Source: Actinomycetes bacterium (lineage in GTDB: Bacteria > Actinomycetota > Actinomycetes > JAHEKZ01). Taken from it: a stretch of DNA of 37,199 bases. Each line of letters begins with the position of its first letter. Within the stretch, counting starts at the first letter, position 1. This document shows positions 1,956-11,598 of this stretch, piece after piece. A model generated the notes under the pieces. It was not told the origin of the DNA, did no database searches, and saw only the letters and a list, made by a program, of their open reading frames with translations. The position numbers were made by a program, and so were the translations under genes. The stretch lies in the NCBI GenBank assembly GCA_036274415.1, contig DASUFV010000072.1, positions 1 to 37,199 of the forward strand, written 5' to 3'.

Positions 1956-4478
1956 TCAGGAGTACGCCTGTTGCGCCCTGAGTGACCGTCGGACGCCGTC
2001 AGCACCTTCGAGCAGAAGTCGGCGCAGCGCGGGTGGGGTGTCGTGTTCTGCGAGATACGCCTCGGTGCGGTCGACGATGTCCCGCTCGACGAGGAACCCG
2101 GGGTAGAGGCCGACCACGAGACTCTGAGCCGTGTCGTTCGTCCGAGTGCGCCACACTTCTTCGAGCATCCCGAAGTAGCGGTCGACCAGCCTTCGGTTCA
2201 GCTCTGACTGGTCGGGGGAGTTGAGACCGGCGATCGTCGCGCTGAGCAGGGCGTTCGGCAGCTCGTCTGACTCGACAGCGGCGCGCCACGCGCGGTCTTT
2301 GGCTTCTTCAGTCGGTACCGCCGACCTGGCGGACGCCGCTTGGCGTTCGCCGCTCGCTGTCCGGTCGCGCTCGAACTCCTCGTCGACGAGCTCGACGGGC
2401 TCGCGTCCGGTGGCCACCAGCCGGTGCACAAGACTCCACCGCAGGTCGGCGTCCACCGTGAGGCCGTCCGGCACCCGCGTGCCGTCCAAGACGTGCGCGA
2501 CGACGTCGAGCTGCTCATTCGTGCGCGCGATGCTCACGAACGCACGGAAGAGCGCGAGCTGGTGATCGCTCCCGGGCGCCGCCGCATTGGCCTGCTCGAG
2601 CAGGAAGTCGGCGAACTCGGTCAGCGCCTGTTCGCGTGGCTCCTTTGGCGTGAACAGGTAAAGGGCCGAGACCGCCTGTCGCACGACTCCCTGGAGCACT
2701 CCGATGTCGGCTTCATGCGGTAGCCCGCTGCGGACCAACGTCACCCAGTCGCGTGCGGACAGCTCGGCGTCCCGGGTCATGTCCCATGCCGCCGTCCAGC
2801 ACAGGGCGCGCGCCAAGCTGTCCGTCAGCTCGCCGATGCTTTCGACGAGCGTCTGAGCCGAGCGTGGGTCGAGCCGGATCTTGGTGTACGCGAGGTCTTC
2901 GTCGTTGACGAGCAGGAGGTCCGGCTGCTGGACGCCGATCAGCTGGGGAACCGACGTGCGTTCACCCACGACGTCCAGCTCGACGCGGTCTTGCCGTACC
3001 AGCCCGTCGTCAGTGCGCTTGTAGAAGCCGATGGCCAGCCGATGCGACCTCAGAGTCGGGTGGTCCTCAGGGGCAGACTGCAACACGTCGAACGAGGTGA
3101 ACGCACCTGCATCGTCCACCGTGAACTCTGCACGCAACGTATTGAGGCCGGCCGTCTCGAGCCACTCCTTCGCCCAGCTCGAAAGGTCGCGTCCGGAGGT
3201 TTCCTCCAAGGCGGAAAGCAAGTCGACCAGCTCGGTGTTCCCCCACGCGTGTCGGTCGAAATACGAGCGGACACCGGCGACGAAGGCATCGCGTCCCACC
3301 CACGCGACGAGCTGCTTCAGCACGGACGCACCCTTGGCGTAGGTGATGCCGTCGAAGTTGACTTCGACATCTTCGATGTCGCGAATGTCAGCAGAGATCG
3401 GGTGGGTCGACGGCAGTTGGTCCTGTCGGTAGGCCCATGTCTTCTCGAGATTCGCGAAGGTCGTCCATGCATTCACCCAGTGAGTCGCTTCGGCTTGGCA
3501 GATCACTGAGGCGAAGGTGGCAAAAGACTCGTTCAGCCACAGGTCATCCCACCAACGCATCGTGACGAGGTCGCCGAACCACATGTGTGCGAGCTCGTGC
3601 AAGATCGTCTCCGCGCGTCGTTCGTACGCAGCGTCTGTGACCTTCGACCGGAAGACGTAGTCCTCGAGGATCGTCACCGCCCCTGCGTTCTCCATCGCGC
3701 CGGCGTTGAACTCAGGGACGAACAGCTGGTCGTACTTTTCGAAGGGGTAGGGCCGAGCGAAAAGCTCTTCGAAGTAGTCGAAGCCCTTCTTGGTCACATC
3801 GATGACGCGTTCGGCGTCCAGGTGCTCGGCAAGCGACCTTCGGCAGAAGACGCCGAACGGGATACCCCGGTGCTCGTCGCGTACGACGTGATACGGCCCA
3901 GCCACGAGGGCAGTGATATAGGTCGACATCCGTGGCGTGGCGGGGAAAGTCCATCGAGCGGTCCCGGTGCTGAGCGGCTCCGGCTCTGGCGTGGGTGAGT
4001 TCGAGATGACTTCCCAGTCGTCCGGAGCAGTGACGGTGAAGGAGAAGGTCGCCTTCAGGTCGGGTTGGTCGAAGCAGGCGAACATTCTGCGTGCGTCGAT
4101 CACCTCGAACTGGGTGTAGAGGTACACGGCCTTGTCGACCGGATCGACGAAGCGGTGGAGTCCCTCGCCGGTTCGCATGTATGCGCAATCCGCAATGATC
4201 CGGAGCTCGTTCTGTGCGGCTAGCGACGACAGCTGCACTCGCGCGTCCTGGAAGGCACTGACATCCACCGGTGACCCGTTGAGCGTGATCTCGCGGACGC
4301 GTGGCGCGATGAGGTCGACGAACGTGTCCGATCCGGGCTCGGCGGCGAACCGGATGGTGGTGTCGGAAACGAAGGTCTCGTCACCCGTCATGAGGTCGAG
4401 GGCGACCTCGTACGACTCGGTGGTGACCAATCGTGCCCGTTCGCGGGCTTCATCACGGGTCAAGTTCTCGCCGGGCAC
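1956..4478 (-). CDS. pepN: Aminopeptidase N (M1 family zinc metallopeptidase)
   Basis: The product has the GAMEN motif (FNAGAMENAGAVT) and the zinc site HELAHMWFGDLVTMRWWDDLWLNESFA. I set the start at the GTG at 4478 (VPGENLTRDEARERA...), which has an AAGGAG Shine-Dalgarno sequence about 6 nt upstream. The track ORF extends to 4592. Confidence 0.93.
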   Translation of the reverse strand: MPGENLTRDEARERARLVTTESYEVALDLMTGDETFVSDTTIRFAAEPGSDTFVDLIAPRVREITLNGSPVDVSAFQDARVQLSSLAAQNELRIIADCAYMRTGEGLHRFVDPVDKAVYLYTQFEVIDARRMFACFDQPDLKATFSFTVTAPDDWEVISNSPTPEPEPLSTGTARWTFPATPRMSTYITALVAGPYHVVRDEHRGIPFGVFCRRSLAEHLDAERVIDVTKKGFDYFEELFARPYPFEKYDQLFVPEFNAGAMENAGAVTILEDYVFRSKVTDAAYERRAETILHELAHMWFGDLVTMRWWDDLWLNESFATFASVICQAEATHWVNAWTTFANLEKTWAYRQDQLPSTHPISADIRDIEDVEVNFDGITYAKGASVLKQLVAWVGRDAFVAGVRSYFDRHAWGNTELVDLLSALEETSGRDLSSWAKEWLETAGLNTLRAEFTVDDAGAFTSFDVLQSAPEDHPTLRSHRLAIGFYKRTDDGLVRQDRVELDVVGERTSVPQLIGVQQPDLLLVNDEDLAYTKIRLDPRSAQTLVESIGELTDSLARALCWTAAWDMTRDAELSARDWVTLVRSGLPHEADIGVLQGVVRQAVSALYLFTPKEPREQALTEFADFLLEQANAAAPGSDHQLALFRAFVSIARTNEQLDVVAHVLDGTRVPDGLTVDADLRWSLVHRLVATGREPVELVDEEFERDRTASGERQAASARSAVPTEEAKDRAWRAAVESDELPNALLSATIAGLNSPDQSELNRRLVDRYFGMLEEVWRTRTNDTAQSLVVGLYPGFLVERDIVDRTEAYLAEHDTPPALRRLLLEGADGVRRSLRAQQAYS

Positions 4479-5991: not shown

Positions 5992-7239
5992 TCAGAACAC
6001 GAAGGGACAGTGTGGCGCTCTGGGTGCCTCGAACGCCGCACTCACCGCGGCGAGCGATCCCTGGGTGTGCTCGGTCAGCCAGGACGCGTCACCGTGAGCC
6101 TGAAGCGTCGGACCACCGAGGAGAACCGCCCCGAGCGACCGAATGTCGAGCGAGATGTCAGGTGAGGTGGACGTACGTTCGCAAGTGGCGCCCTCCGAGC
6201 CAGCGCTGAGGCGCCACGTACCTGCGTTGGCTTCGAAGTCGCGATCGGCTACCTCGAGCACGACGTCGACGTCCCGTGCGTAGGTACGACCGGCAAGTGC
6301 CGATGGCAGGTCGAGGATGCGCACCCACATCGTGTCACCCACCTCGCGGACGCTCTGGCGCGAGTGCTCGAGCCACGTCAGCACTGGATCGTCGACCGGA
6401 AGGTTCCAGTGGCGTGTTGTGGTCATCAGGTCCAGCGAGAAGCAGTAGCGCCAGAGTGCTGCGTGGGCGGCTGCGTCACGACTCAGCAGACGCTGGACCT
6501 TGACCTCCCCCTCGCCGTATCGACCGGTCGGCCATGCGGCTTTCAGTGAGTACCGCACTAGACCGCGCACACCGTTGTCGTCCTCGGCGATCACCGTCAT
6601 CGCTCGAGTCGCGCCCTCCCGATAGCGAGGCGGGTCGAAGACGTGACGCGTGTTCCATGCTTCGGTCAGCTCGAGCATCCCTCCGCGCGTCCCGCGCACG
6701 TGGTCGTACACCGGCTTGACGTACTCGAAGTCCGAGCTCGTGTCGACCATCCGCAGACGGAGAGACGGATCGTGTGGAGCGTCCACCAGCGTGCTATGAG
6801 TGTGAGGAACGGTGAGCTTCATGCCTTGCGTGGCCAGGCCGTAGCCGAAGCGCCCGTAGATCGCGGCGTCGGCCGCCCAGAGCGCAGCGATGGGTTCATT
6901 GCGTGCGATCCCGTCAGCGTGGAGCACCCCGAGCATGCGGCGCAGCACACCGCGTCGGCGGTGGGTCGGGCGAACCGCGATCAGCGTGACGCCGGCGGTC
7001 GGCAGCTCTCCGCCTGGAGTACTGGTGTTCAGCGTGAAGTTGGCACACAGGCCGATGACCTCGTCGCCTTCCCACGCGAAGAAGGTGCGGTCGTCTTCGA
7101 CGACCCCGTAGATCGGCGACTCGATGTCGTCCTGCTCGACAGGCTCACCGAACGCGGTCTCGTCAAGCTCCTGCGCCGCCTCCAGGGCCGCCTTGCGGTC
7201 GCCAAAGTCCTGGAGCATGTCCCGGATCTCAATGGCCAT
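5992..7239 (-). CDS. Eis-like GNAT N-acetyltransferase (three-domain, UPF0256-type)
   Basis: The 415-aa product has a GNAT acetyl-CoA motif, IAVRPTHRRRGVLRRML. Its length and C-terminal region (...LSLDIRSLGAVLLGG...) resemble Eis-family enzymes. The assignment rests on recall, not on a search. Confidence 0.8.
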   Translation of the reverse strand: MAIEIRDMLQDFGDRKAALEAAQELDETAFGEPVEQDDIESPIYGVVEDDRTFFAWEGDEVIGLCANFTLNTSTPGGELPTAGVTLIAVRPTHRRRGVLRRMLGVLHADGIARNEPIAALWAADAAIYGRFGYGLATQGMKLTVPHTHSTLVDAPHDPSLRLRMVDTSSDFEYVKPVYDHVRGTRGGMLELTEAWNTRHVFDPPRYREGATRAMTVIAEDDNGVRGLVRYSLKAAWPTGRYGEGEVKVQRLLSRDAAAHAALWRYCFSLDLMTTTRHWNLPVDDPVLTWLEHSRQSVREVGDTMWVRILDLPSALAGRTYARDVDVVLEVADRDFEANAGTWRLSAGSEGATCERTSTSPDISLDIRSLGAVLLGGPTLQAHGDASWLTEHTQGSLAAVSAAFEAPRAPHCPFVF

Positions 7240-7311: not shown

Positions 7312-7830
7312 GTGAGCTGGTCATCCCCAACGGTCGAACGGCGCTTCGTCCCCGACGAGGGGGACGAGCGCACCCTCCTGAATGCCTTTCTCGAGTTTCA
7401 CCGAGAGACGTTCCTCTGGAAGTGCTCCGGGCTCACTGGTGAGCAGCTGGCAACCCGCTCAGTGTCCTCGACCGATATGACGTTGCTCGGGCTGATTCGT
7501 CACCTGACGGACGTCGAGCGGCACTGGCTCCGCGACGTGGCGGTCGGCGAGTCGATCGAATCGCGCTACTGGGACAAGCCGGACCGCGACTCAGACTTCC
7601 TGCACATCGATGCTGCAGCAGCCGAGGCCGACTACGTCGCCTACATCGAGGAGGTCGAGATCTGTCGCGAGAACCAGGGCATCGATCTCGACGCGACGAT
7701 CGATGCCCCCAACGGTCGCGACCGGTTCACCTTTCGCTGGATCCTGATTCATCTGATCGAGGAGTACGCCAGGCACAACGGTCATGCGGACTTGATCCGC
7801 GAGGCCATAGACGGTGCGACTGGCGAGTAA
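7312..7830 (+). CDS. DinB-superfamily protein (DUF664 / mycothiol-transferase-like)
   Basis: The product contains FLEFHRETFLWKCSGLTGEQLATRSVSSTDMTLLGLIRHLTDVERHW...LIHLIEEYARHNGHADLIRE. This is the characteristic DUF664/DinB four-helix pattern with conserved His residues. Confidence 0.8.
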   Translation: MSWSSPTVERRFVPDEGDERTLLNAFLEFHRETFLWKCSGLTGEQLATRSVSSTDMTLLGLIRHLTDVERHWLRDVAVGESIESRYWDKPDRDSDFLHIDAAAAEADYVAYIEEVEICRENQGIDLDATIDAPNGRDRFTFRWILIHLIEEYARHNGHADLIREAIDGATGE

Positions 7831-8005: not shown

Positions 8006-9133
8006 TCAGTCCCGCCTCAGTCGTTCGGAAACCCACCGGTGGAACTCCTGGATGTGGTGTTCGCCGGGAACGAGCACCCCGCCCTGGCGGTAATTGCGAG
8101 AGGACATACCGACCTGGCAGCGCTCGCACGCGTCGAAGTCCTGCTCGTTGACCCGGTGGAAGAGCTCGACGGACTTCGTGAGGTCGAACCCGCTGTCGAG
8201 CGTCTCCTGCGTGTAGAGCCAGTCGCAGTCGACTCTCGTGCGGTCGGCTGACAGGGGGGTCATTCGGTGGAAGATCACATGATCGGGAACGAGGTTGATG
8301 AACACCTGCGGGGCAACGGTCACCGCGTAGTACCGCCGGTCGTGTTCCTCCGGTAGGTCGGGAATGGGTGCACCGCCGACCGAGCCGTCGACTGTGAACG
8401 CATCGACATCGGCACCGAAGGACGCCCCGTGTCCGACGAAATACTGCGCCGCGAGACCGTCGGCGAACTCCGGGATCACATCAGTGAGCTCTGGATGGAT
8501 GGTCGCGCAGTGATAGCACTCCAGGAAGTTCTCGATGATGAGCTTCCAGTTGGCGGCAACGTCGTAGCTGATGCGGTGCCCAAGGTGCAACGAGCCGATC
8601 TGCCATCGGTCGATGACGGCAGCTCCGCCCAAACGATCGGCCACTGCGCCCAAGACGTCGTCCTCGAAGGACGGCGGGGTGGGTGCCAGGCACACCCAGA
8701 CGTAGCCGAGCCATTCCCGAAGGTGGACGCCGACAAGTCCGAACTCGTCACGATCGACATCGTGCATCGACGCCAGATTGGGCGCCGCGATCAGCCGGCC
8801 GTCAAGCGCGTACGTCCACGAGTGGTAGGGGCACTGAAACTTTCGCGTGACCTGACCACGTGGCTCAGCGCACAGCAAGGCACCACGGTGGCGGCACACG
8901 TTGAGAAACGCACGCAGCACGCCGTCATTGCCGCGCACGATGAGCACGCTCTCTCGACCCACGGTCGCAGTCTGGAACGCACCTGGCTCGGATAAGTCGG
9001 TCGAACGAGCTACCGCCGACCACGTCTGCTCGAAGATGCGCTCTTGCTCGAGACTGAAGTGGTCAGGGTCGGTGTACTCGCGACCGGCCGGTGTCGATCG
9101 AAAGCTCTCGGGCAACGCGCGCATCTCAGTCAC
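8006..9133 (-). CDS. Rieske [2Fe-2S] non-heme-iron oxygenase, alpha subunit (alpha-only type)
   Basis: The Rieske motif is CRHRGALLC...CPYHSW. The mononuclear-iron motif is ENFLECYHCATIHPEL. The start is either the GTG at 9133, which forms a GTGA overlap with the upstream stop, or the ATG at 9124. No beta-subunit gene follows. Confidence 0.88.
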   Translation of the reverse strand: MTEMRALPESFRSTPAGREYTDPDHFSLEQERIFEQTWSAVARSTDLSEPGAFQTATVGRESVLIVRGNDGVLRAFLNVCRHRGALLCAEPRGQVTRKFQCPYHSWTYALDGRLIAAPNLASMHDVDRDEFGLVGVHLREWLGYVWVCLAPTPPSFEDDVLGAVADRLGGAAVIDRWQIGSLHLGHRISYDVAANWKLIIENFLECYHCATIHPELTDVIPEFADGLAAQYFVGHGASFGADVDAFTVDGSVGGAPIPDLPEEHDRRYYAVTVAPQVFINLVPDHVIFHRMTPLSADRTRVDCDWLYTQETLDSGFDLTKSVELFHRVNEQDFDACERCQVGMSSRNYRQGGVLVPGEHHIQEFHRWVSERLRRD

Positions 9134-9510
9134 GACTCACCGCCGGCTGCTGCCACGGGGGAGCTGACCCAGATCACGTCGTCGATCACGGTCACCTGGT
9201 GCACGCGCACCGGCTTGGTGGCTGGGAGCCCATGCACTTCGCCATTGCGTACGTCGAAGCACGAACTGTGCAGTGGACATTCCACGAGGTGACCCTCGAG
9301 CCATCCCTCGGAGAGCGATGCGCGCTGGTGGCTGCACGTGTCGTCGATGGCGTGGAAGACACCGCCGACGTTGAAGATCGCGATCGGTACGTCGAGGACG
9401 ACGCGCGCGCATTCGCCTTCGGGGATGTCTGAAGCGCGGACTGTTGGCCGCGCCTCGGTAAGAGCTGGCAGAGCTGGCAGAGCTGTCACAGCCTGGTCGA
9501 TCAGTTCCAC
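9130..9510 (-). CDS. Rieske-type [2Fe-2S] ferredoxin (oxygenase electron-transfer component)
   Basis: The product contains CSHQRASLSEGWLEGHLVECPLH, which is the CxH...CxxH pattern. I chose the GTG at 9510 because a GAGGGAG Shine-Dalgarno sequence lies 6 nt upstream. The track ORF extends to 9690, but that extension is Arg/Ser/Pro-rich and overlaps the riboswitch. The start remains uncertain. Confidence 0.78.
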   Translation of the reverse strand: MELIDQAVTALPALPALTEARPTVRASDIPEGECARVVLDVPIAIFNVGGVFHAIDDTCSHQRASLSEGWLEGHLVECPLHSSCFDVRNGEVHGLPATKPVRVHQVTVIDDVIWVSSPVAAAGGES

Positions 9511-9655
9511 GAGTGTCTCCCTCGTCAACGCTGGTACGTGGCGCGACTTCGGGGAGCAGCTCGACAGCGGAACGGCCGACGGCGACCGCCGGCTGTTCCT
9601 CGCCTTCGGGCCTCCCCACGAGGCCGCGGACACCCGAGCGCATGGGCGGTCGGGG

Positions 9656-9860
9656 GAGCTGGCAGGTCTTCGGACTTGCGGGCGAACCACACGAACCCAT
9701 GGCTCGTGTGGTTGTGGTCCTACTGGCCGTCGCTTCCCGAGGCTGACGCCTCAGTGCTTGGTGACGGCGGTCGTTCCCGCTAACCGCTGCGGGGCAGTCC
9801 CGGATTCGCACCGGGTTCCCTCTTGCGACGACCTTCCTGGCGAGAAGGTCGAACCAGCTC
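9656..9860 (-). promoter_or_regulatory. Cobalamin (AdoCbl/B12) riboswitch, Rfam RF00174-like
   Basis: All elements below are read 5'->3' on the minus strand. The P1 helix pairs GAGCTGG (9860-9854) with CCAGCTC (9662-9656). A P2 hairpin pairs CGACCTTC with GAAGGTCG (9851-9829). The conserved core is AGGGAA-CCCGGTGCGAATCCGGG-ACTGCCCCGCAGCGGT (9821-9783). It is followed by GCACTG...GGGAAG and by a peripheral hairpin, AACCACACGA/TCGTGTGGTT. The B12 box is AAGTCCGAAGACCTGCC (9677-9661). Order and spacing match the E. coli btuB leader as I recall it (AGGGAA..CCAGUGCGAAUCUGG..GCAGCGGU..CACUG..GGGAAG..AAGCCCGAAGACCUGCC). Confidence 0.9.
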
Positions 9861-9867
9861 GGCGCAC

Positions 9868-9873
9868 ACAGTA
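9868..9873 (-). promoter_or_regulatory. Putative -10 hexamer (TACTGT) for the riboswitch transcript
   Basis: This TANNNT-type hexamer on the minus strand ends 7 nt upstream of the first P1 nucleotide at 9860. No convincing -35 element was seen. Confidence 0.3.
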
Positions 9874-9971
9874 GGGCCGACGCCGCGAGTTCGGCAGGTT
9901 GGACGCGCCGCGGTTTCACGGGACGGGACGGTGACGAGCACGACATCGACGGAGCGACGTTGACGAGGGGT

Positions 9972-10045
9972 TGGAGCGGGTGACGGGAATCGAACCCGCG
10001 TGGCCAGCTTGGAAGGCTGGGGCTCTACCATTGAGCTACACCCGC
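9972..10045 (-). tRNA. tRNA-Gly (anticodon UCC), CCA encoded
   Basis: The minus strand reads GCGGGTG-TA-GCTC-AATGGTA-GAGC-C-CCAGC-CTTCCAA-GCTGG-CCAC-GCGGG-TTCGATT-CCCGT-CACCCGC-T-CCA. This gives a full cloverleaf with a TCC anticodon. Confidence 0.95.
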
Positions 10046-10096
10046 GAAACCGCCGCCTCGAGCGGCGGTCGGCGTCTAACCCTAGCCGCCCGCAAG

Positions 10097-10169
10097 CGGG
10101 GCGTAGCGTAGTGGCTAGCGCGCCTGCTTTGGGAGCAGGAGATCGGGAGTTCGAGTCTCCCCGCCCCGA
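10097..10169 (+). tRNA. tRNA-Pro (anticodon UGG)
   Basis: The sequence reads CGGGGCG-TA-GCGT-AGTGGCTA-GCGC-G-CCTGC-TTTGGGA-GCAGG-AGATC-GGGAG-TTCGAGT-CTCCC-CGCCCCG-A. This gives a full cloverleaf with a TGG anticodon. The 3' CCA is not cleanly encoded. Confidence 0.95.
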
Positions 10170-10248
10170 CCCCCACAGGTCCATCCGGGCCTGTGACGCG
10201 TCGATCCTCGATCGGCTCGATCGGCACATCCAAGGAGCACAGACCCAC

Positions 10249-11598
10249 GTGAAGACCGATGTCGAGACCCTGAGCCCCACGCGCGTGCGGTTGTCGATCG
10301 AGATTCCGTTCGACGAGCTACAACCCAACGTCGATGCGGCGTACAAGAAGATCGCGTCGCAGATCACGATTCCGGGTTTTCGTAAAGGCAAGGTTCCGGC
10401 TCAGATCATCGACCAGCGAGTGGGACGCGGTGCGGTGCTCGACGAGGCGGTCAACGAAGCACTCCCCAAGGCGTACGGCGATGCGGTCTCGGAGAACGAC
10501 ATCAAGGTGCTCGGACAGCCGGACGTCGAGGTCGGGGAGTTTGCCGACGGGCAACCCCTCACGTTCACCGCAGAGGTAGACGTCCGACCGGAGATCGAGC
10601 TTCCCGACATCGCCTCGCTGGAGGTCACCGTCGACACCGCCGAGGTGTCCGACGACGACATCGACACCGAGCTCGAACAGCTTCGTCAGCGTTTCGCGAC
10701 GCTGAAGGCCGTCGACCGTGGCGCACAGAAGGGTGACTTGCTGTCCATCTCCATGGCCTCGACCAAGGACGGCGAGCCCGTGGAAGCACTCTCGGCGACT
10801 GGTCTTACCTACGAGGTCGGCTCTGAGTCACTCCTGCCAGGGCTCGACGACGCGGTCACGGGTCTGCGCGAAGGCGAGGAAGCGCAGTTCAGCGTGACAC
10901 CCGAGAGCGGCGACCTGCAGGGACAGTCGGTCGACGTCAGCGTCACGGTCTCATCGGTGAGAGAGCGGGAGCTCCCGGATCTCGACGACGCGTTCGCCGA
11001 GCTGGTCAGCGAGCACGACACGTTGGAGGAGCTGCGCAACACCATTCGGAACGAACTGGAGCCACGGAGCAAGGTTCAGCAGCTCATGGCGGCTCGTGAT
11101 GCCGTGCTGAATGCGCTCGTCGAGCAGGTCGATGTGCCGCTCCCCGAAGGGGTCGTTGCGAACGCCGTTGCCGACCACTTCCAGGACGGACACGGGGACG
11201 CCGACCACAAGGATGAGTTCGAGAACCAGGTGCGTGAGTCATTGACGCGTGACTTGGTGCTGGACACGTTGGCCGACCGCGATGACGTCCAGGTGACGCA
11301 GGCCGAGCTGACCGAGTACTTGATCAGGCAGGCGCCTCAGTACGGCATGTCACCAGACCAGTTTGCTCAGGCCATCGCTCAAGCCGGTCAGGTGAGCGCC
11401 ATCGTCGGCGACGTGCGGCGCTCCAAGGCGTTGTCCCTCGTGCTCGAGCAGGCGACCGTGCTGGATCGCGACGGCAACGTCGTTGAGATGTCCGCCAGTG
11501 GCGGAAGCGAGTCCGAGACGAGTGAAGACGCAGACGAAGCAACCGATCAGGGCACCGGCGAGGGCGCCGGCGAGGACGTCCGCGACGACACGGCCTAG
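10249..11598 (+). CDS. tig: Trigger factor (ribosome-associated chaperone/PPIase)
   Basis: I set the start at the GTG at 10249, with AAGGAG 11 nt upstream. The product begins VKTDVETLSPTRVRLSIEIPFDEL and carries the ribosome-binding motif GFRKGKVP. It ends in an acidic tail. The part of the track ORF before 10249 runs across both tRNA genes and is spurious. Confidence 0.93.
   Translation: MKTDVETLSPTRVRLSIEIPFDELQPNVDAAYKKIASQITIPGFRKGKVPAQIIDQRVGRGAVLDEAVNEALPKAYGDAVSENDIKVLGQPDVEVGEFADGQPLTFTAEVDVRPEIELPDIASLEVTVDTAEVSDDDIDTELEQLRQRFATLKAVDRGAQKGDLLSISMASTKDGEPVEALSATGLTYEVGSESLLPGLDDAVTGLREGEEAQFSVTPESGDLQGQSVDVSVTVSSVRERELPDLDDAFAELVSEHDTLEELRNTIRNELEPRSKVQQLMAARDAVLNALVEQVDVPLPEGVVANAVADHFQDGHGDADHKDEFENQVRESLTRDLVLDTLADRDDVQVTQAELTEYLIRQAPQYGMSPDQFAQAIAQAGQVSAIVGDVRRSKALSLVLEQATVLDRDGNVVEMSASGGSESETSEDADEATDQGTGEGAGEDVRDDTA

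Follow-up and report, generated by a model that had tools for sequence, protein, structure and literature searches.

The 37,199-nt contig DASUFV010000072.1 (assembly GCA_036274415.1, an Actinomycetes bacterium), which was analyzed over its whole length and is referred to here as the window, carries on its minus strand a two-gene operon encoding a Rieske ferredoxin and a Rieske non-heme-iron oxygenase. A cobalamin (Cbl, B12) riboswitch aptamer lies 133 nt ahead of the ferredoxin gene on the same strand (Table 1). An Rfam cmscan of the full window gave three matches above the gathering score, namely two tRNAs and the Cbl riboswitch family RF00174, the latter scoring 104.6 bits (E = 2.3e-25; gathering score, 31.5) and covering the full length of the model (positions 1–189 of 189). 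The first-pass annotation, made by a model from the letters alone, had called a Cbl riboswitch at 9656–9860 on the minus strand; this interval runs exactly from the 5′ strand of the closing helix P1 to its 3′ strand, and the RF00174 score above the gathering threshold that it had named as a check was obtained.

The hallmarks of a B12 riboswitch listed in that annotation were all located where it had placed them on the minus strand, and within 9860–9656 the core (GGGAA..GGUG..AAUCC..CUGCCCCGCA), the B12 box, and the closing P1 occur in the correct order. The aptamer also contains a P6 extension (model positions about 90–153), which includes GCCACUG...GGGAAG and an inserted hairpin. In an alignment of 10 oxygenase-linked leaders from related loci, 13 of the 55 pairs predicted show compensatory double changes, some of them in P1, in P2, and in the hairpin of the P6 extension; the covariation that the first-pass annotation had proposed to look for in orthologous leaders is present. 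A cross-phylum set of six leaders showed double changes at 14 of 38 pairs. The element is an ordinary RF00174 member, with a score comparable to those of the metE and nrdA aptamers that neighbor orthologous loci. The riboswitch would be of the class-I type, probably sensing adenosylcobalamin (AdoCbl).

Table 1. Features of the riboswitch and Rieske operon locus (positions are those of the window; SD, Shine–Dalgarno sequence).
Feature	Position	Strand	Basis or remark
Cobalamin riboswitch aptamer (RF00174)	9644..9873	minus	covariance model, motif coordinates, covariation
P1 5′ strand, GAGCTGG	9860-9854	minus	pairs with 9662-9656
P1 3′ strand, CCAGCTC	9662-9656	minus	pairs with 9860-9854
Aptamer core	9821-9783	minus	motif location
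GCACTG	9757-9752	minus	motif location
GGGAAG	9738-9733	minus	motif location
Variable hairpin	about 9712-9684	minus	motif location
B12 box, AAGTCCGAAGACCTGCC	9677-9661	minus	motif location
Candidate -10 hexamer, TACTGT	9868..9873	minus	putative; transcription would start at about the first base of P1
Small hairpin, GGCCUC-GUGGG-GAGGCC, candidate P13/L13	9609..9625	minus	predicted folding; putative kissing role
Anti-SD, CUCCCC	9551..9556	minus	can pair with GGGGAG in a long hairpin (SD free) or with the SD (closed)
SD, GAGGGAG	9517..9523	minus	6 nt upstream of GTG 9510; read from the sequence
First operon gene, Rieske [2Fe-2S] ferredoxin of 126 aa	9130..9510	minus	PF00355, 1.2e-18; start GTG 9510
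Rieske non-heme-iron oxygenase alpha subunit	8006..9133	minus	375 aa (or 372 aa from ATG 9124)
tRNA-Gly(tcc)	10045-9972	minus	ARAGORN, agrees with Rfam
tRNA-Pro	10097-10171	plus	ARAGORN, agrees with Rfam

Three open reading frames (ORFs; 9137..9946 minus, 9338..9874 plus, and 9780..10391 minus), which the first-pass annotation had dismissed as spurious and masking the element, exist as mechanical ORFs only. Their codon statistics are non-coding: the overlapping ORFs have a GC content of 0.66–0.69 at second (GC2) and 0.60–0.71 at third (GC3) codon positions, compared to a GC2 of about 0.45 and a GC3 of about 0.8 in the real genes of the window.

The element points, as first annotated, at a Rieske ferredoxin starting about position 9510 and at the oxygenase behind it. 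The ferredoxin start (GTG 9510, same strand) is supported by the strong SD GAGGGAG at 9523–9517. The ferredoxin passed the NCBIfam PRK09965 (HcaC-type) cutoff (126 vs. 113 bits) and is 45–46% identical to the ferredoxins that adjoin homologous oxygenases; the ligand motifs C-x-H and C-P-L-H do not vary among them. We did note a 9-nt tandem repeat (GCTCTGCCA x2.5; 9463–9485, minus strand) that encodes ALPALPAL within a ~22-aa N-terminal extension absent from most homologous ferredoxins; the repeat might have arisen by slippage. A second in-frame GTG, at 9489, is not preceded by an SD. The start of the oxygenase adjoins the ferredoxin stop, and the operon ends after the oxygenase, the next gene (7312–7830) being convergent. 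The oxygenase contains the PF00355 (2e-18) and PF00848 (9.8e-50) domains and thereby both the cluster ligands and the 2-His-1-carboxylate catalytic domain expected of a Rieske oxygenase alpha subunit. The Rieske ligands C80/H82/C101/H104, as well as E205, H208, H213, and D332, are invariant in an alignment with GbcA-type proteins, E205 being the bridging residue typical of the GbcA/Stc2/CntA group.

The best NCBIfam model for the oxygenase is GbcA (NF058607 equivalog, 202.4 bits), of which only the N-terminal half was matched. The best solved structures (E-values of 1e-42 to 5e-50) were 3n0q, Stc2, which is a stachydrine demethylase (3vca, 4qup), and CntA, a carnitine monooxygenase (6y8j); ring dioxygenases scored 1e-28 or worse. 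An aromatic ring dioxygenase was ruled out by these NCBIfam and structure matches. By sequence comparison, the oxygenase is a member of the GbcA/Stc2/CntA N-demethylase group, where it belongs to a separate, shorter actinobacterial subfamily. The first-pass annotation had placed the target outside the usual range of B12 riboswitches; an N-demethylase of this group instead fits the known class of B12-independent isozymes. No GbcB-type reductase is adjacent to the oxygenase in the window, its partner gene being the Rieske ferredoxin, and homologues use a ferredoxin together with a separate flavin adenine dinucleotide (FAD) reductase.

Homologues with 60–70% identity are abundant in Actinomycetota, and their surroundings point to betaine catabolism. 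In Hoyosella, the oxygenase is found with a BCCT transporter, a ferredoxin and FAD reductase, a dimethylglycine (DMG)-oxidase type protein (DAO-FAO_M-GCV_T), PurU, and a GMC oxidoreductase. A Priestia plasmid gene (46% identical) lies between a DMG-oxidase-like gene, solA, BCCT, and gcvPB, and at locus L173 the oxygenase is followed by a DMG-oxidase-type gene in one operon. Over the 84 related loci that we collected (see below), the neighbors were IclR (68), a reductase (68), a Rieske ferredoxin (62), a GMC oxidoreductase (45), PurU (21), and a DMG-oxidase type (14). This homologue context, together with the conserved positions shared between oxygenase clades (see below), makes a three-component, O2-dependent N-demethylase acting on glycine betaine or a close analogue the most likely function. 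A different substrate under the same regulatory logic (proline betaine, carnitine, choline, trigonelline, DMG, or an O-methyl compound with a corrinoid-dependent demethylase) is somewhat unlikely: the nearest solved relatives do act on stachydrine (Stc2) and carnitine (CntA), some Streptomyces carry two paralogues 10–30 kb apart (L006/L018, L035/L038, L067/L075), and the window and loci L082–84 have no adjacent betaine-pathway genes, but the family neighbors (DMG-oxidase type, PurU, BCCT, GMC oxidoreductase, solA, gcvP) indicate the glycine betaine to DMG to sarcosine to glycine route.

A separate observation concerns a Mycobacterium metagenome-assembled genome (MAG; L031), where a tandem glycine riboswitch (6962–7154; 57.2 and 33.5 bits) lies ~2 kb from an IclR-type oxygenase cluster, which fits a pathway ending in glycine.

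Related loci were collected by protein similarity, comprising the best 80 genome loci, Hoyosella, and metagenomic relatives (84 loci), and B12 elements were sought with Rfam in 19 of the 84 and with a core-plus-box regular expression in the 80 genome loci; none was found. The nearest relatives (L082–84) share the ferredoxin-to-oxygenase operon and have a divergent IclR gene with an intergenic region of 112–189 nt. At 80 clpX-tig loci of other actinomycetes, no riboswitch and no Rieske genes occur at the equivalent place. No same-genus orthologues were found, the oxygenase being a singleton in a 5.8-billion-protein collection with a best other match of 70% identity. A ferredoxin-first DNA pattern (B12 box, 281–341 nt, IDDTCxHQ) gave a single chance match without RF00174 in genomes (L174) and nothing in metagenomes. 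The best 80 loci alone would suggest that the pairing is a one-off, which proved wrong: the riboswitch-carrying clade lies outside the best 80.

This clade emerged with an oxygenase-first pattern (B12 box, 341–401 nt, CRHRG motif). In a Streptosporangiaceae MAG (L182, JASHOE010000008.1), an orthologue with 63.5% identity has RF00174 (93.7 bits) directly upstream, and in a Steroidobacteraceae MAG (L177), RF00174 (99.4 bits) precedes a GbcA-like oxygenase. The metagenome scan gave 15 contigs, 14 of which encode a 59–67% identical homologue; 10 of these 14 have RF00174 (66–103 bits) immediately upstream on the same strand, and in two more the contig or locus ends at the expected place of the aptamer. 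The riboswitch-to-oxygenase pairing thus occurs at 11 further loci of the subfamily found in the window. The first-pass annotation had asked whether orthologous Rieske pairs are preceded by RF00174; this is the case for the oxygenases of L182 and the 10 metagenome contigs, and not for the 84 closest loci or in the scans with the ferredoxin-first pattern. Locus L197 was not used as support. Its oxygenase is split in two frames (2246–3215), a search as permissive as E<=1 gave no aptamer in front of it, and the copy has probably decayed. The nrdA riboswitch adjoining the split gene is intact.

In a neighbor-joining tree, the riboswitch-linked oxygenases form their own clade. The window protein belongs neither to this clade nor to the IclR-linked one and splits off close to the base. 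Members of the riboswitch-linked clade (L182 and the JGI soil/peat-type contigs L185–L199) resemble the window in their oxygenases (60–67% identical), aptamers (72–75%), TAnnnT hexamer, leaders of 103–133 nt, and GAGG(G)AG SD. They differ in that the oxygenase comes first and is usually the sole gene, with no ferredoxin between switch and oxygenase, and in that the riboswitch units around them are those of metE, nrdAB, and NicO. The window unit is instead flanked by tRNA-Gly and housekeeping genes. Between riboswitch-linked and IclR-linked oxygenases, 182 positions are conserved in both and only eight are clade-specific, all of them conservative; at seven of these eight, the window oxygenase carries the state of the IclR/betaine-cluster clade. 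Given the 182 shared conserved positions against eight conservative differences, the enzyme would appear to be the same and the regulator alone to differ, and a diverged B12-biosynthetic function of the riboswitch-linked oxygenases is disfavored by the same counts.

The aptamers of the high-GC contigs cluster by target gene (nrdA-, metE-, or oxygenase-linked) and not by contig, which implies old, separately inherited riboswitch–gene pairs. The window aptamer falls inside the main oxygenase-linked group (72–75% identity, compared to 64–65% for metE-linked and 55–57% for nrdA-linked aptamers). The window looks like a hybrid, its operon and protein being of the IclR-clade type and its aptamer of the riboswitch-clade type; this arrangement may be ancestral, or the regulatory region may have been exchanged. 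We rejected the movement of riboswitch and oxygenase as one module between phyla, as aptamer similarity follows taxon: the two aptamers of L177 are 77% identical to each other, compared to 44% between the window and Phaeobacter aptamers. The aptamers thus appear to have been recruited within each phylum.

At two of these loci, we noted further features. In L177, an nhaA-I riboswitch (467–523, 40.7 bits) lies upstream of an NhaB antiporter gene, which is present as two consecutive ORFs (810–2315) owing to a frameshift or an assembly error. In L194, a 277-aa fusion of a DUF2231 membrane domain and a Rieske domain (1400–2233) lies downstream of the riboswitch-linked oxygenase and could donate electrons from a membrane anchor in place of the soluble ferredoxin.

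The first-pass annotation was not aware of a Rieske oxygenase system as a described riboswitch target, but a Cbl riboswitch on a Rieske N-demethylase is already known in Alphaproteobacteria, on the gbcAB genes of Phaeobacter and further Rhodobacterales. In a December 2025 preprint, the gbcAB genes of Phaeobacter inhibens were described as carrying a Cbl riboswitch within their 5′-untranslated region; genetic evidence indicated that GbcAB is a Cbl-independent alternative to MtgBCD, with the switch made by the riboswitch, and Rhodobacterales without mtgBCD also lack the riboswitch (bioRxiv 10.64898/2025.12.19.695462). We confirmed the arrangement on the Phaeobacter gallaeciensis plasmid pGal_C110, where RF00174 scores 119.3 bits 116 nt upstream of gbcA-gbcB. 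The window shares with Rhodobacterales gbcAB an RF00174 aptamer about 115–135 nt upstream of the genes of a GbcA-group Rieske oxygenase, and in both, sequestration of the ribosome-binding site is proposed to act on the B12-independent counterpart of a corrinoid-dependent demethylase. They differ in phylum (Actinomycetota vs. Alphaproteobacteria), in the oxygenases (33–34% identical, with two insertions missing from the window protein), and in the partner, which is a Rieske ferredoxin encoded first in the window and the GbcB reductase encoded second in gbcAB. Between the aptamers, similarity is limited to the universal core (44% identity), and their B12 boxes are different variants. What appears new, per the searchable literature, is a Cbl riboswitch in Actinomycetota on the shorter ferredoxin-dependent subfamily (33–34% identical to GbcA), the repeated occurrence of this pairing among high-GC bacteria from the environment beside metE, nrdAB, and cobalt-transporter units, and the ferredoxin-first operon, which has so far been seen in the window alone.

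The orthologous units adjoin classic Cbl-riboswitch units. Riboswitch-controlled metE lies near the orthologues in L182, L185, and L187, and riboswitch-controlled nrdA or nrdAB in L177, L191, L197, and L199. In L198, an AdoCbl riboswitch precedes a NicO Ni/Co transporter gene, with a BtuF-class binding protein nearby, and the oxygenase is followed by NicO in L190 and by CobK in L191. Such units (metE, nrdAB, NicO, and the oxygenase) often lie divergent or convergent within a few kb of each other (L182, L185, L187, L191, L197–L199, and L177). Given this linkage, the oxygenase is a regular member of the B12-scarcity gene set in the riboswitch-clade bacteria. The same linkage also bears on an improbable alternative, in which B12 control serves supply: betaine one-carbon units would pass via methylene-tetrahydrofolate to methionine (MetE) and to S-adenosylmethionine for corrin methylation, or the oxygenase would act directly in corrinoid/cobalt acquisition or biosynthesis. 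NicO or CobK behind the oxygenase, and the riboswitch-controlled NicO and BtuF-class protein near that of L198, would fit such a role, and betaine is reported to stimulate B12 production (bioRxiv 10.64898/2025.12.19.695462). The enzyme is, however, nearly unchanged from its homologues in IclR betaine/DMG clusters (182 shared vs. eight conservative differences), and metE and nrdAB are at least as frequent as neighbors as the supply genes. To our knowledge, no B12 biosynthesis step uses a Rieske oxygenase (CobG, CobZ, and BluB are not Rieske enzymes), and a bona fide GbcA under a similar switch has genetic support as an isozyme of MtgBCD. That the oxygenase is an unrecognized component of B12/cobalt supply in high-GC soil bacteria, for instance a source of betaine-derived methyls for corrin synthesis or an enzyme acting on a corrinoid-related substrate, would explain the repeated linkage of the riboswitch unit to NicO, CobK, and BtuF-like genes; we consider it a long shot.

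Substitution for a B12-dependent enzyme is favored over supply, given the same enzyme under both regulators, the gbcAB/MtgBCD precedent, and the corrinoid-dependent systems in Actinobacteriota. Regarding the latter, genes for corrinoid-dependent methylamine methyltransferases are present and expressed in peat Actinobacteriota (PMC10805028), and among marine mtgC reads about 5% were assigned to Actinomycetota (PMC12478193).

The region between aptamer and ferredoxin suggests how the switch may act. A GGG loop in the small hairpin (candidate P13/L13) is complementary to the CCCC of L5, and an L5–L13 kissing loop is part of the cobalamin riboswitch architecture. The platform (9655–9511) was predicted to fold in two ways: a long hairpin (GGGGAG:CUCCCC) leaving most of the SD open (-76.9 kcal/mol), or the small hairpin together with an anti-SD:SD helix (-76.5 kcal/mol). 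With the small hairpin enforced, the SD pairing probability rises to about 1. The design is repeated in orthologous leaders, with an 8-bp anti-SD:SD helix in L182 (probability about 1) and CTCCC(TC) about 30 nt upstream of the SD in L193 and L198. As for the promoter, a TAnnnT hexamer occurs at the matching aligned position in 10 of 10 oxygenase-linked leaders; against the candidate -10 TACTGT, a strict scan gave no consensus sigma-70 promoter and the hexamer did not pass. We propose a translational OFF switch, given that no intrinsic terminator was found in the window leader, that one fold sequesters the SD, and that the anti-SD/SD design is repeated in L182, L193, and L198. An intact aptamer that acts mainly on transcription (Rho-dependent or intrinsic termination), or one that is an evolutionary leftover no longer regulating, seems very unlikely. 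A C-rich stretch follows P1 (9655–9630) and folding discriminates weakly between the platform states, but the search for an intrinsic terminator was negative, orthologous leaders likewise combine a strong SD with a complementary anti-SD some 30 nt ahead of it, and the aptamer scores as well as the neighboring metE and nrdA aptamers, contrary to decay.

Taken together, we consider it reasonably probable that the riboswitch turns off the translation of a B12-independent oxidative demethylase, which serves as the backup to a corrinoid-dependent demethylase. A promoter of its own just upstream of P1 would give a two-gene mRNA for the Rieske ferredoxin and the Rieske monooxygenase. Corrinoid binding would close the aptamer, and a probable L5–L13 kissing contact would stabilize the small hairpin, which in turn would free the anti-SD to pair with the SD and turn translation off. 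Without B12, the anti-SD would be held in the long alternative hairpin and the operon translated. The enzyme, with a reductase encoded elsewhere, would convert glycine betaine or a closely related betaine to DMG and formaldehyde, and, as with metE and nrdAB, it would be made under B12 scarcity only, as the backup for a route through an MtgB/MttB-type corrinoid-dependent methyltransferase.

Several points weigh against this interpretation. The 37 kb of the window contain no MttB/MtgB, corrinoid protein, reductase, betaine transporter, or DMG oxidase; a B12-dependent counterpart is presumed in the organism, of which the window is a 37 kb contig. None of the 84 closest homologue loci collected by protein similarity has a riboswitch, IclR being used instead, and some neighbors in the riboswitch clade are cobalt/B12 supply genes (NicO, CobK, BtuF-like), which leaves room for another rationale. 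The oxygenase falls far under the NCBIfam GbcA cutoff (202 vs. 670 bits), though the cutoff is strict, given that the Phaeobacter GbcA with the published riboswitch also misses it (517 bits). The substrate assignment is one of guilt by association, and the searchable literature holds no characterized member of the short oxygenase subfamily. Finally, thermodynamic folding alone leaves the choice between the two platform states undecided, and the folding z-score of the whole leader is unremarkable (-0.59).

The proposed logic is that of the metE and nrdAB Cbl riboswitches of Actinomycetota, where a B12-independent isozyme is repressed when B12 is available; the enzyme chemistry differs, and in the present case the B12-dependent partner is presumed. 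With the IclR-regulated three-component clusters of Streptomyces, Hoyosella, and Nocardiopsis, in which ferredoxin, reductase, and oxygenase genes are accompanied by a GMC oxidoreductase, PurU, and a DMG-oxidase type, the window shares the oxygenase subfamily (64–70% identity) and a similar ferredoxin, and with L082–84 among them also the compact ferredoxin-to-oxygenase operon. These clusters have a divergent IclR gene, an intergenic region of 112–189 nt, and no riboswitch, whereas the window has no nearby IclR, reductase, or pathway genes. One enzyme thus appears under two regulators, either an IclR protein or a riboswitch. If correct, the interpretation adds a Rieske N-demethylase of Actinomycetota to the B12 riboswitch regulon, parallel to the glycine betaine–cobalamin link recently described in marine Alphaproteobacteria, and predicts that riboswitch-clade organisms also run corrinoid-dependent methylamine demethylation, switching routes by B12 supply. 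This may matter for the turnover of betaine and one-carbon units and for the B12 economy of soils, and would help to assign a function to a large subfamily whose present annotation is just 'aromatic ring-hydroxylating dioxygenase'.

The rest of the window encodes housekeeping functions (pepN, rpiB, nei, an Eis-like GNAT, tig, clpP1P2, clpX, valS, folC, ndk, mreB, PBP2, rodA, a radical SAM protein, and RNase E), with no other B12-related gene within its 37 kb. The gene order is Mycobacterium-like (pepN-rpiB-nei ... tRNA-Gly/tRNA-Pro-tig-clpP1P2-clpX), but the presence of mreB, PBP2, and rodA indicates that the contig is not from Corynebacteriales. Judging by similarity, the contig is from a poorly sampled actinomycete lineage, given the singleton oxygenase and a ClpX for which about 185,000 species genomes offer no match above 82% identity. 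The stretch from nei to the Rieske operon contains an Eis-like GNAT acetyltransferase gene (5992–7239; NF002367, 369 bits) and the mycothiol-S-transferase (MST)/DinB-family gene at 7312–7830 mentioned above, the latter of which suggests a mycothiol-producing actinomycete.

An integrative island at tRNA-Gly was considered and rejected, as an att-like repeat of the tRNA 3′ end, an integrase, and a compositional break are all absent. We did note a 12-bp perfect complement (21 nt at 81%) between 9958–9969 and 9519–9530 on the minus strand, the upstream arm of which begins 3 nt past the CCA end of tRNA-Gly while the other arm lies in the 5′ half of the ferredoxin SD region. The 12-nt match occurred in 0 of 2000 shuffles, yet it was noted post hoc, and ~2 such repeats are expected by chance region-wide. 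In a transcript that includes 9969, the minimum free energy structure contains the 12-bp helix (pairing probability about 0.98), with the entire riboswitch inside it. Silencing of read-through from the tRNA and formation of an RNase III site are possible roles; the complement might also be left over from an insertion.

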